Shown here: positions 3,047 to 53,999 of the stretch, in pieces
Numbering within the stretch: position 1 is the stretch's first letter
Layout: every line of letters starts with the position of its first letter
Assembly (NCBI RefSeq): GCF_018350175.1
Contig: NC_058384.1
Coordinates: 30,380,001-30,444,000 of the forward strand
Direction of reading: 5' to 3'
Source: Felis catus
Taxonomy: Eukaryota
Length of the DNA: 64,000 nucleotides
Translations under genes and position numbers: made by a program
The notes under the pieces: generated by a model
Told to the model about the DNA's origin: nothing
Seen by the model: the letters and a program-made list of their open reading frames with translations, nothing else
Database searches by the model: none

Positions 3047-3541
3047 AAAAAGTAGGAATAACCCAAGTATCCATAAACTGATGAAAAGACAAACAAANNN
3101 NNNNNNNNNNNNNNNNNNNNNNNNNNNNNNNNNNNNNNNNNNNNNNNNNNNNNNNNNNNNNNNNNNNNNNNNNNNNNNNNNNNNNNNNNNNNNNNNNNNN
3201 NNNNNNNNNNNNNNNNNNNNNNNNNNNNNNNNNATAATTTAATTTATATAAAGTGTCCAGATTGAAAAATCTGTGAAGACAGACAGGAGATTAGTGGTTG
3301 ACAAGGGATGGAGGGAGAAAGGGGATGAGGAAATTGGGAGGTATGGGGTTTCTTTTAAGGATAATGGAAAGTTCTGGAATTAGTGGTGATGATTACACAA
3401 GCTTGCAAATATTCTAAAAACCACTGAGTTATATACTTTATGTGGTTAAAATGGTGACTTTTATGTTATGTGAATTTTATCTTAATTTAAAAAAAACTAC
3501 ATTGAGATATCACCTTACGACCAAAACAATGGCTAACATTT

Positions 3542-5068
3542 AAAAAAAAATTTAAATCTTTATTCACTTTTAAGAGACAGAGAGAGGGAGAAGACTTGTG
3601 AGACTACATCCCACTTCTGACCTCCAGAACGGTAAGATCTACAACACCCAAGCCTCCACTTGAGAGTTGTCACTCTCTGCCTGTTCACGTTCATTTTAGG
3701 AGCAAGTACACAGACAACCGAAGGGAAGTGAGCCTGCTTTTGTTGTTGCTATTTGTTTTCTCATTTGTTTCCCTGACCAACTATAAAAGTCCCTGCCTGA
3801 CTCTCTGGAGTGACTGCTAGCATCTTCTTTCCTGTGTGAAATTCCTCCGGACTGAGTGGGCCACTGAACTGCGGCGACAGGCAGGTCAGTATCTGAACTA
3901 ATAATGAATGGCCCGGCAGTTTCTCCTCCACGAATCACAGAATGTTGGAGCTAGTTGGAGCCTTGAGATCATCTATTCCAGTCTTATTTTACAGTAGGAA
4001 ACAGATGCCCAGAGAATTAAAAAGACTTCCCGAGAAAACAAAAAAACACTGATGCCCGGCCCCTGCCCCCAGAGAGGCTGATTCGATTGTTCTGTGGTAG
4101 GGCCTAAGTGTCCATTATTTTTCAAAGCCCTCCTTTCTCATGGGACTTTGAAATTTGGCCTACTCTCAACACATACTGAATTCTACTTAAAGGTCCAAAC
4201 TAACGATAATTAATTTCCAGTATCACAGAGACCAATACCTGTTTTATTCCTGGTCACTATAAGCTTTCATTCGATGCAAAGCAAAAACATTTCTGCATGT
4301 TCTTCCCTGAAAGTTCTCATTTTCCCTGTCCTTGTTTAGCTTCTGAGAGAGAACCTTATGTGACTCCATTTCCTTCCCTGGATCCTACGCTGTCAGTGTT
4401 TCTTTTTCCTCTCCATACCTTGGGAACCGAAGTCTCCCCCCAGACCTCAATCCCAACAATCAACAGACCTCTCCATGGTGCTCCCCACATGCCTTCATGA
4501 ACCACCTTGGGCCAGGCGTGTGGACAGCCCCCTTGCCTCCATGCTGTGCTCAGGCCAACAGGAAGTTGCTGGTTCCTCCAAATCAGCAGTTGTGCACGGA
4601 AAAAATGCTATTTGCAGATGCTTTGATTTTTAAGATTAATACTTCTTTTATTAAAGTTCAATTTAAGGGGTACCTGGGTGGCTCAGTCGGTTAGGTGTCT
4701 GACTTCGGTTCAGGTCATGATCTCACAGTTCATGGGTTCAAGCCCCACATCGGGCTCTGTGCTGACAGCTCGGAGCCTGGAGCCTGCTTCAGATTCTGTG
4801 TCTCCCTCTCTATACCCCTCCCTGGCTCACACTCTCTCCACCTCTCTCTCAAAAATAAATGAACATTAAAAAAAATAAAATAAAAAAAAAAATAAGAGAC
4901 AGAGAGAGAACATGAGGGGCGGGGGGCAGAGAGAGGGGGGACACAGAATCCAAAGCAGGCTCCAGACTGTCAGCACAGAGCCCGACGCAGAGCTCGAACC
5001 CACGAACCGTGAGATCATGACCTGAGCCAAAGTTGGAAGCTCAACCGACTGAGCCACCCAGGCGCCCC
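3542..5068 (-). mobile_element. Felid SINEC split in two (tail part 3542-3586, body 4893-5068) by a 1.3 kb insertion
   Basis: TSD CAATGGCTAACATTT at 3527-3541 and 5071-5085; the antisense SINE tail 'tttaaatctttattcactttttaagagacagagagag' joins seamlessly to the body 'aacatgaggggc...ccacccaggcgcccc'. Confidence 0.88.
3587..4892 (+). mobile_element. Retroposed composite insert: ~1.08 kb non-SINE sequence plus a terminal SINEC (4667-4892) supplying the poly(A) tail
   Basis: 16-bp direct repeat TAAGAGACAGAGAGAG at 3571-3586 and 4893-4908; A-rich tail 4868-4892; TTTT/AA-type L1 endonuclease site at the left junction. Confidence 0.8.
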
Positions 5069-5085
5069 ATCAATGGCTAACATTT

Positions 5086-5270
5086 TAAAGACTGGTGTTA
5101 CCCAATGTTGACAGGGACAGGAGCAACTGAAACTTTCATAGGTTGCCAGTGGGGATTCAAAATGACTCAGCCACATTGGAAAACAATTTGGCAGTTTCTT
5201 ATAAAGTTAAACATACACTTACTATATATCCCAGCAATCTCACTCATAGGTATTTTACCCAAGAGAAATA

Positions 5271-10944: not shown

Positions 10945-11370
10945 TTTCTTTTTTTTTAAGTTTATTTTATTTCTCCGATGTTTATTTTTATTTTTGGGAC
11001 AGAGAGAGACAGAGCATGAACAGGGGAGGGGCAGAGAGAGAGGGAGACACAGACTCGGAAACAGGCTCCAGGCTCCGAGCCATCAGCCCAGAGCCTGACG
11101 CGGGGCTCGAACTCACGGACCGCGAGATCGTGACCTGGCTGAAGTCGGACACTTAACCGACTGCGCCACCCAGGCGCCCCTATTTTATTTCTTTTCAGAG
11201 AGAACACAAGCAGGGGAGGGGCAGAGAAAGAGGGAGACACAGAATCTGAAGCAGGCTCCAGGCTCTGAGCTGTCAGCACAGAGCCTGACATGGGGCTCGA
11301 ATTCATGAGTTGTGAGATCATAACCTGAGCTGAAGTGGGACGCTTAACCAACTGATCCACTCAGGCGGCT
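10945..11370 (-). mobile_element. Nested SINECs: young SINEC_Fc-type copy (10975-11180) inside the tail of an older SINEC
   Basis: Inner TSD TATTTTATTTCT at 10963-10974 and 11181-11192; the inner copy is CpG-rich with the young 'ggtggcgcagtcggttaag...cagccaggtcacgatctcgcggtccgtg' diagnostic. Confidence 0.9.
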
Positions 11371-11574
11371 CTTGTAACACTTGACTTCTTAAGCTGGGTG
11401 TAGGGATAAATGAATAAACAAATGAGTGAATGAATTTTAACCGCAAATGTCATCGGAGTATACCTGATAAAGAGGTATAACTAAAACAGTACCTGGAAAG
11501 ATTATTTAAATTGGAACTTAACAAACTACAAATGTTATGCATTTGTTATGGTATCAACTTATTTTCTTTCCCCT

Positions 11575-15769: not shown

Positions 15770-16560
15770 CCTATTCCGAAATGGCCGCCCATGCTTCCCC
15801 CGCTCTGCGCATGCTACTTGAACGCAATTCGGAGTTGTAATTCGCAGACTTTCGCGGCGCAAGATGGGGACTTGGCGGCCGGCGAGCCCGAACCTCCCAG
15901 CATGCCTTGCAGCCCGGCCGGGAGTCCCGACGTCTAGTGATGGGGAGCCCCTGGTGCTTTCGGCCGCCGCATCGGGTGTAGAGGTCGAGCCCCGAGCCTG
16001 GGAATTGGACGACCGCAGAGGAGAAAATGGAAGCGTGGCGCTGTGTGAGGAGGGGCTACGGCCGCTGTGTGGTGGGAAGAGGCCGGTCAGTAGGGCTGGG
16101 TGGCAGGAGGGAGGAGGGAGGGGCGGGGGCGGGCGGCCCGGGTAAACCCGGGGCGGGGCGGGCTGGGGGAGGAAGGAGGAGGAAGAGGGTCCGGGCGGCG
16201 GTGCCGCCGGGACGAGCCTCCGGAGACCCCGAGGGATAGGTAAACCCGGCGCGGAGCCGGCGGGACGCTTGGCCGACGCGGGCCGGGCCGGGCCCGGGTC
16301 GGGCCCGGGGCGATCGCCCGCCCGCAGGGCTAGTGCCTTCCCGACCTGGCTGGGCCTTGGAGCCCCGGCCCACTTTCCCCCAGCCCTGCCCCCGAGCCAG
16401 CCTGAACCCCCGCCCCGGTCCCCGGCCTCCTCCCAGGCCTCAGCACCCGCCGGGAGCTGAGCGTCCGCGGGGAAGCCGCCGGTCCGCAGTAGGTCCCGGG
16501 GCGGCCTGTCCCCGAGAGGCGCGCGCATCGCACGCACGCCCGGGGGTTTGCTGTTTGCGA
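15770..16560 (+). promoter_or_regulatory. ANGEL2: CpG-island promoter / first exon region of ANGEL2
   Basis: Very high GC and CpG density around the start codon; NRF1-like TGCGCATGC (15806-15814), E2F-like TTTCGCGG (15850-15857), GC boxes GGGGCGGGG in intron 1; no TATA box. Confidence 0.88.
16027..16085 (+). CDS. ANGEL2: ANGEL2 coding exon 1 (MEAWRCVRRGYGRCVVGRGR)
   Basis: Matches the recalled mammalian ANGEL2 N-terminus; Kozak aaaATGg; donor GTCAGT at 16086; phase 2 fits exon 2. Confidence 0.95.
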
Positions 16561-29933: not shown

Positions 29934-30080
29934 GGGGTGCCTGGGTGGCTCAGTCATTTGAGCCTCCGACGTCAGCTCAGGTTATGATCTCGTGGTCTGT
30001 GGATTCAAGTCCCACATCAGGCTCTGTGCTGACAGCTCAGAGCCTGGAGCCTGCTTCAGATTCTGTGTCTCCTTTCTCTG

Positions 30081-30127
<47 letters not shown>

Positions 30128-30428
30128 GCCCTTCCCTCATTCACCCTCTGTCTCTCAAAAATAAATAAACATTAAAAATAATAATAAAGGGGCGCCTGGG
30201 TGGCGTAGTCGGTTAAGCGTCCGACTTCAGCCAGGTCACGATCTCGCGGTCCGTGAGTTTGAGCCCCGCGTCAGGCTCTGGGCTGATGGCTCAGAGCCTG
30301 GAGCCTGTTTCCGATTCTGTGTCTCCCTCTCTCTCTGACCCTCCCCTGTTCATGCTCTGTCTCTCTCTGTCCCAAAATAAATAAACGTTGAAAAAAAATT
30401 TTTTTAAATAATAATAAAAATAAATAAA
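29934..30428 (+). mobile_element. SINEC with a young SINEC_Fc-type copy (30188-30405) nested in its tail
   Basis: Outer TSD AGGAGGA(A/G)TTCTA; inner TSD AAATAATAATAAA; inner copy is CpG-rich. Confidence 0.92.
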
Positions 30429-41217: not shown

Positions 41218-41441
41218 GGGGTGCCTGGGTGGCTCAGTCGGTTGAACACCCGACTCCAGCTCAGGTCATGATCTCACAGTCCGTGAGTTCGAGCCCCGTG
41301 TCGGGCTCTGTGCTGACAGCCTGGAGCCTGCTTCAGATTCTGTCTCCCTCTCTCTTTGCTCCTCCCCTGTTCATGTTCTCTCTTGTGCGCTCTCTCCCCC
41401 CCCAAATAATAAATAAACATTAAAAAATTAAAAAAAAAATT
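41218..41441 (+). mobile_element. SINEC
   Basis: Full body; TSD AGAGTCAGT(C/T)TT. Confidence 0.92.
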
Positions 41442-52898: not shown

Positions 52899-52956
52899 TT
52901 ATAATAAAGACAGAACACAACAAAACCATAACCTTCATCTAAAATGGCTAACATTT

Positions 52957-53168
52957 GGGGCGACGGTGTGGCTCAGTCGGTTGAGTGTCCAGCTTCGGCC
53001 CAGGTCATGATCCCATAGTTCGTGGGTTCAAGCCCCGCATCAGGCTCTGTGCTGACAGCTCAGAGCCTGGAGCCTGCTTCGGATTCTGTGTCTCCCTCTC
53101 TCTCTGCCCGCCTCTGCCCCCACTCTGTCTGTTTCCCAAAAATAAACAAACATTAAAAAAATAAAAAT
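52957..53168 (+). mobile_element. SINEC
   Basis: Full body; TSD AAATGGCTAACATTT. Confidence 0.92.
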
Positions 53169-53468
53169 AAATGGCTAACATTTTAGATTTGATTGCATAG
53201 AAGGAATTGTAGGCCAAGACACTGCTGTAATTATAACATCTAAATCAACTCCAGTGTTTGAAGTAGCATATGCAAAGAGAAACTTTAATTATCCATGTCA
53301 AATAGCGAATGATTTCGATTTTTTGTTTTAATAGGGTGGCTACTAAGTAAGACAACCTCCAGGAGATTTTGACCGTCCCAGAAACACGGGGCATGAGGCA
53401 AGAGGGAAAGAGATAGAAGACAGGGATAGAACTCTTTTGCATTGCTCATTTGTCTTCCCAGCACCTAC

Positions 53469-53850
53469 CTTCATTCTCATGTCCCTGGCATATTTCTCCA
53501 GCTCCTTCCTTATGTCAGCCCTCAACATCTTTGAGACATTGAGGACCAGCTGCTTCCACTCAATGGGCTGAAAGCTATGAGGCTCATGGGGGACATACAG
53601 CCCAATCTTGACCTTCTTGACTGTGTGCAGGTACTTCTTGTAGGAGTCTTCAAAGTCAAAGATGAGGTCACTCAAAGTCCGAAAGGTCAACGGCTTGTCC
53701 ATCAGCTCAGCCCTTCGGCTCATGCCCAGTGAGCCATAGCGGCCATTGCAATAAATCCCCAGCACAACATGGTGAAAGTAGTTTCCTGAGAAGTAGGTTT
53801 TAAAGCTGATGGGGAATCGCTCGATGGAAGGCTGTCCATTGGTTAAGTAT
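53469..53850 (-). CDS. VASH2: VASH2 coding exon (YLTNGQPSIERFPISFKT...FHHVVLG...GSLGMSRR...ARDMRMK)
   Basis: Vasohibin transglutaminase-like core with catalytic His motif HHVVL; 382 nt; donor GTAGGT. Confidence 0.98.
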
Positions 53851-53999
53851 CTTAGACCATCTGAGTCAAGGAAGAGAAAGGAGACCTTGAAAATTCACAG
53901 AGCTTGGACTCCCAGTAATGGAAGTGGCCCATACGGGCAAAGTGTCCATCCCTCTGCCTCTGAGTTGGCCCACACCTTACCTTTCCAGACTAATCCTTT

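Follow-up and report, generated by a model that had tools for sequence, protein, structure and literature searches.

A 1.3-kb block closed by a Can-SINE, very probably retroposed by L1 into an older Can-SINE upstream of ANGEL2 in the cat

What lies upstream of ANGEL2 in the cat genome? We analysed a stretch of Felis catus DNA of 64 kb (contig NC_058384.1, positions 30,380,001 to 30,444,000; hereafter, the window). A CpG island is followed by the exons of ANGEL2, which occupy 16027-37000 of the plus strand, with a likely ATG at 16027; a VASH2-type vasohibin exon lies at 53346-53894 on the minus strand. Upstream of ANGEL2 sits a nested repeat structure with a 1.3-kb block at its centre, 11119 nt from the likely ATG and on the same strand, in agreement with the distance of about 11 kb given in an earlier note on this DNA. 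Nothing in the analysis links the insert to the regulation of this gene. The features of the structure are as follows (coordinates within the window).

3493..3541, plus strand: old L1 3' region, left part, the target of the host SINE; aligned to the L1 copy at 2260-2307, continuing across the junction
3527..3541, no strand: outer TSD, left copy, 15 nt, belonging to the host SINE
3542..3586, minus strand: host Can-SINE, tail part, including the left inner TSD; the rejoined element is alignable over its full length with window SINEs
3571..3586, no strand: inner TSD, left copy, 16 nt; bottom-strand site TCTT/AAAA
3587..4666, plus strand: cargo, 1080 nt of non-SINE DNA, single copy in the window
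3612..3655, plus strand: MLT1-like LTR 3' piece, sense, aligned to the window LTR at 1545-1917; the label is suggestive only
3930..4035, plus strand: MIR-like piece (tentative label)
4040..4140, no strand: MER5-like piece (tentative label)
4653..4666, plus strand: 14 nt beginning at an endonuclease-like site, probably the left TSD that the passenger SINE had at its locus of origin
4667..4892, plus strand: passenger Can-SINE, IIA-like, full length, A-rich tail
4893..4908, no strand: inner TSD, right copy
4909..5068, minus strand: host Can-SINE, head and body
5071..5085, no strand: outer TSD, right copy
5086..5266, plus strand: old L1 3' region, right part; aligned to L1 copies 2308-2488 and 1978-2105

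The layout is that of one insertion within another. An exact 16-nt repeat (3571-3586 and 4893-4908) brackets a 1306-nt block at 3587-4892, which consists of the 1080 nt of non-SINE cargo followed by the full-length, sense-oriented passenger Can-SINE (4667-4892) with its A-tail. The host of this block is an antisense Can-SINE, itself flanked by a 15-nt repeat (3527-3541 and 5071-5085). The perfect inner repeat, the outer pair, and the sense SINE whose A-tail closes the insert had been described in the earlier note, and each is present as described. The inner 16-mer has sharp ends, permits no extension on either side, and occurs exactly twice when both strands of the 64-kb window are searched. 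Because this TSD itself sits in SINE sequence, we compared it with 15 other SINE copies of the window; the best match in each carries 1-4 mismatches. Its length depends on how the first T is assigned: 15 nt if that base is part of the tail and 16 nt otherwise.

Is the cargo a later arrival at this site? Deleting the block together with one copy of the repeat leaves a 207-nt sequence that aligns as a single full-length SINE, so that the antisense element said to be split in two by the insert is restored whole. The rejoined SINE matches other window copies across the junction in 16 of 20 cases, and its multiple alignment is gap-free at that point. When the host SINE is also deleted, an independent copy of an L1 3' end (2260-2488) matches the outer flanks straight through their own junction, with E 2.8e-12 and 68% over 233 columns. 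A join of 60 + 60 nt at this L1 junction scores 60, compared with 49 and 19 for the halves alone and 49-51 for control joins. Since host SINE and L1 are both restored on excision, the block is a later insertion and its cargo is not ancestral here; the two empty-site reconstructions rule out ancestral presence, one circumstance that the earlier note had set against its own reading, because host SINE and L1 run on continuously without the cargo. The cargo is 45% G+C versus 33-38% in the L1 flanks. Elsewhere in the window, a whole LTR at 1545-1917, tentatively of MLT1 type, breaks an old L1 3' end near the same L1 position as does the host SINE in the next L1 copy.

How was the block inserted? 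Its A-tail lies on the plus strand, so the bottom strand must have supplied the primer, and the relevant site is the bottom-strand 5'-TCTT/AAAA-3'. The TTTT/AA-type site named in the earlier note was thus read on the wrong (top) strand for a plus-strand insert. TCTT/AAAA conforms to the L1 endonuclease rule 5'-YYYY/RR-3' as it is given in PMC4859970. The nick falls at the boundary between the pyrimidine tract and the tail of the host SINE, where most window copies have a C and the host has a T; both TSD copies carry this T, which is therefore older than the insertion of the block. Good support for the earlier proposal, that an RNA ending in a SINE was retroposed here by L1 from another locus, comes from the TSD and A-tail of the block, its endonuclease site, and the two empty-site reconstructions. 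Some RNA-mediated route to the block is almost certain.

An assembly error or a DNA-level duplication, with no retroposition at all, is highly improbable. It would draw on the 11 runs of N in the window (132-217 nt each, including 744-907, 2557-2692, and 3098-3233), the nearest of which ends 337 nt upstream, and on the position of the TSD within repetitive SINE sequence. Against it, no N falls within the block, both junctions lie on the same non-consensus 16-mer, the A-tail and endonuclease site are correctly oriented, and excision restores host SINE and L1 to the base.

What kind of RNA served as the template? Runs of T terminate Pol III, and the sense strand of the cargo contains ten runs of 4-5 T. 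A Pol III transcript of the block in full is thereby excluded, which argues that the template was a Pol II RNA. The passenger SINE could have ended such an RNA: it contains AATAAA at 4854, 4874, and 4879, and an A-rich run at about 4867-4892 follows the first of these within the usual spacing of 10-30 nt. AATAAA 4854 is also the first on the sense strand of the block, with none in the cargo, an absence that is uninformative alone (785 of 1000 shuffles likewise lack it); two ATTAAA, at 4016 and 4650, precede the SINE. Sense Can-SINEs are reported to end dog transcripts (10.1101/2020.11.30.405357), and in Can SINEs an AATAAA with a (TC)n tract is described as functioning as a poly(A) signal (PMC9599045). 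That L1 inserted a SINE-ended Pol II RNA, whether a host transcript or an orphan L1 transduction, is in our judgement very probable for the two taken jointly.

Between these two sources, we hold with modest confidence to a three-event history with a host Pol II transcript as template. In it, a Can-SINE inserted antisense into the old L1, as the reconstruction of the L1 shows. The host SINE had, or may later have gained, the boundary T that makes the TCTT/AAAA site; this T predates the arrival of the block. Elsewhere, a host transcript made by Pol II, whether from intergenic or intronic DNA, by read-through, from a 3'UTR, or from an LTR start, would have entered a resident sense Can-SINE and ended there, either by cleavage after the AATAAA of the SINE or through priming on its A-tail. 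L1 ORF2p would then have nicked the bottom strand and reverse-transcribed 1.3 kb, leaving the TSD of 15-16 nt. What remains would be a neutral second copy of unique DNA, equivalent to a SINE that carries a 5' transduction.

An orphan L1 3' transduction, a reading absent from the earlier note, would require an active L1 whose transcript ran past its weak poly(A) signal into more than 1.3 kb of flank and ended at the AATAAA of the SINE, with 5' truncation of the copy removing all L1 sequence. It predicts hallmarks identical to those of a host transcript, and the cargo offers no AATAAA to halt such read-through. Orphans are on record: 1,019 human genomes yielded 48 of them alongside 878 partnered transductions (PMC12350158), and there are two disease cases (PMC4859970). 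Transductions, along with many retrocopies, are documented in dogs (PMC13756887). The required length of more than 1.3 kb is, however, near the top of the ranges reported for L1 3' transductions (51-1570 bp in PMC4862182 and 50-1600 bp in PMC3024322), and the L1 would have had to read through both ATTAAA (4016 and 4650). No L1 sequence was matched in the cargo with the L1 copies of the window as the only reference. The lack of L1 in the cargo and a length at the long end of such transductions favor the host transcript, and we regard the orphan transduction as rather unlikely. The data give no support to the transcript of a non-coding gene, which the earlier note had thought likely and perhaps unannotated, over an orphan L1 transduction, an intronic or read-through RNA, or a truncated 3'UTR.

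Did the passenger SINE travel with the cargo, or join it later? The earlier note had observed that the 5' flank of this SINE is not repeated after its tail. The observation stands, yet its weight alone is small, as 10 of 20 other SINE matches in the window also lack a TSD. An endonuclease-like site lies 14 nt upstream of the passenger, a pattern found at 11 of 17 window SINE starts compared with 6.5-6.9% of random positions and 19.7% (601/3058) of AT-matched ones. Among 10 SINE tails in which the A-run was measured, that of the passenger ranks first (11 versus 3-10). These two observations, neither of them decisive, incline us toward a resident SINE that was copied a second time, and the A-tail of the insert could be the SINE's own genomic tail. 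Passenger and host are equally diverged from the local SINE consensus, at 13/139 and 13/132 positions, respectively.

Two further readings place the joining of cargo and SINE elsewhere in the process. In one, a retrocopy that ended at its own ATTAAA came to this site first and afterwards received the SINE within its poly(A) tail. ATTAAA 4650 does directly precede the SINE, SINEs nest in A-tails twice in the window, and they are reported often to do so in felids (PMC4084570). Yet both nested window cases keep an A-rich left TSD of 12-13 nt, whereas here only 2 A stand before the SINE, and only 9 nt separate the hexamer from the first A that could belong to a tail, short of the 10-30 nt given for class 1 templated sequence insertions (TSIPs; PMC5110952); we find these two steps quite improbable. 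In the other, a whole SINE RNA was reverse-transcribed before the enzyme jumped to an unrelated RNA. The junction falls exactly on the first base of the SINE, as such a jump would have it, and template switching is named in PMC3024322 as a cause of displaced 5' TSDs. A passenger as diverged as the host resembles, however, an old resident rather than a fresh source RNA, and its 5' flank resembles an old TSD, which leaves a template-switch chimera very improbable.

What does the cargo contain? No second copy was found in the 64-kb window (best other match, E 0.70; best nhmmer match, E 0.14). The old-repeat labels of the earlier note fared unevenly; the names MIR, MER5, and MLT1 for pieces of the cargo are tentative. 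The MLT1-like piece aligns to the LTR at 1545-1917 and is longer than had been claimed (3612-3655), while the MIR- and MER5-like pieces match within the range of shuffled sequence: 23 of 60 shuffles reach the best window match of the former and 9 of 60 that of the latter, so that neither rises above chance. A MIR profile could not be built from window copies, as 10 motif matches had no common flank. Even for the MLT1-like piece, 8 of 60 shuffles equal its best match in a window-wide scan; against the LTR at 1545-1917, its score is reached by 4 of 1000 shuffles with the 5' piece preselected and by 73 of 300 without preselection. A motif, picked after the sequence had been viewed, occurs in that LTR and in the MLT1-like piece and nowhere else (0.11 expected).

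If the MLT1 label is right, the start of the insert lies within the 3' portion of a sense-oriented MaLR LTR, shortly ahead of the splice donor position described in PMC5538554. The LTR similarity continues about 20 nt beyond the donor-like site at 3632, so that this donor was unused. MLT LTRs are reported to provide first exons in human and cattle (PMC5538554 and PMC5134097). A TATA-like octamer lies at 3782-3789 on the plus strand (38 of 1000 shuffles contain one), and a donor-like site at 3882-3890, about 100 nt farther on, gives the stretch the look of a promoter with a short first exon, weakly above chance; the pairing of octamer and donor may be chance. Four donor-like sites fall within the first 310 nt, a count reached in 3 of 1000 shuffles for a stretch chosen after looking. 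The cargo as a whole shows no excess of such sites (a count of 5 is reached in 104 of 1000 shuffles), which lends no support to an "unspliced" template; CpG content is ordinary (observed/expected, 0.32). It is a long shot, and extremely unlikely in our view, that the cargo is a near full-length copy of an unannotated, repeat-built germline transcription unit, one that starts in an MLT1 LTR and takes its poly(A) end from a Can-SINE, and that the first 310 nt of this copy now act as a felid-specific alternative promoter and first exon of ANGEL2.

Could the cargo be a copy of a coding gene or a structured RNA? For 10 of its open frames, a Pfam search gave one weak match below the cut-off (E 0.091). 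A protein search with the frame at 4347-4691 returned 4 candidates, of which 0 scored. For the minus-strand frame at 3699-3947, 20 candidates among proteins of 147-2000 aa likewise yielded 0 scored, PDB returned 0, and the ESM Atlas gave no usable match. A search of representative proteins with the same frame returned two matches (E 2e-9 and 6.8e-5) at 31-32% identity; this is far under the identity expected if a mammalian exon had recently been copied here, and the matches are therefore probably spurious. The earlier verdict that the insert has no convincing ORF is in keeping with the lack of a convincing protein relative for the frames tried. A processed pseudogene of a coding gene was rejected for want of coding-exon homology in those frames; a UTR-only copy is still compatible with the data. 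None of 15 Rfam matches (up to E 5) reached the gathering score, and the strongest were miRNA models explained by the inverted SINE pair. The cargo shows no unusual fold (z-score -0.81 for 3587-4566). A bacterial promoter scan of the region, a type of scan irrelevant here, came back empty. We thus saw no sign of function for the cargo as coding sequence, RNA family, or fold.

How does the block compare with known systems? It belongs to a described class, that of class 1 TSIPs and of orphan and 5' transductions. As in the class 1 TSIPs of PMC5110952, there are a TSD of at least 5 nt (16 nt here), an L1 endonuclease site, and a poly(A) signal shortly before the A-tail. The templates described there include nonannotated intergenic and intronic sequence, with L1 ORF2p acting in germ cells or embryos. 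Those insertions are, however, human polymorphisms with a mapped donor, whereas the cat block is known from one sequence with its donor unmapped, and its signal and tail are supplied by a SINE. Orphan L1 3' transductions, by the accounts in PMC12350158 and PMC4859970, share with it unique DNA, a poly(A) tail, a TSD, and no L1 sequence; what defines them there is that the donor has a source L1 lying upstream of it. In the SVA and L1 5' transductions of PMC4859970 and PMC12350158, an upstream Pol II promoter drives transcription into a retroelement and flank and element move together. The layout here is that of a SINE 5' transduction, with a full-length SINE at the 3' end and the TSD displaced upstream of the unique DNA, but the cat element is a tRNA-derived SINE, normally a Pol III transcript. 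Can-SINE poly(A) signals in dog (10.1101/2020.11.30.405357) offer the likeness of a sense Can-SINE with several AATAAA that ends a Pol II RNA; that work describes 3'UTRs in place rather than retrocopies and appears not to treat felid SINE types. Among the papers listed by our literature search, none deals with this locus or with 5' transductions by felid SINEs.

The locus reads as a three-layer fossil: an L1, then a SINE, then a retrocopy. The case indicates that Can-SINE tails can end retroposed Pol II RNAs, given the RNA end we propose, and SINEs would on that account be able to carry upstream unique DNA. A single case leaves existing knowledge unchanged; it would weigh more if SINE-ended 5' transductions proved common in carnivores or if the copy were transcribed into ANGEL2. 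The block is also a possible presence/absence marker for felid phylogeny.

How old are these elements? Judged by the diagnostic marks given in PMC4084570, the passenger SINE belongs with subtype IIA and two further copies in the window with subtype IIB; that paper reports IIB only from felids and IIA from about 35 million years ago onward. These two IIB copies support the label "felid" that the earlier note had given to the SINE. The host SINE has neither the subfamily I nor the subfamily II motif. Its body (4909-5068) and the copy at 41218-41440 have a 7-nt gap in common and both lack the published subfamily motifs, possibly as an intermediate subtype or through recurrent deletion. The insertion of the block is younger than both SINEs, and the perfect 16-mer provides no close date.

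Other SINEs of the window show nesting and sequence likenesses of their own. In two places, 10949-11371 and 29934-30420, an older SINE has taken up a IIB SINE in its A-tail, with an A-rich TSD of 12-13 nt in both cases. The TSD of the SINE at 52957 (52942-52956 and about 53169-53183) has 14 nt in common with that of the host SINE (3528-3541 and 5072-5085), perhaps by chance, although the shared stretch runs in opposite directions when each copy is set against its own SINE; the empty site of the 52957 SINE has 10-nt inverted arms. Passenger and host SINE (4667-5070) form a tail-to-tail inverted pair for which a long hairpin is predicted (-262 kcal/mol, z -22.5); if transcribed, this hairpin would be a by-product of the insertion.
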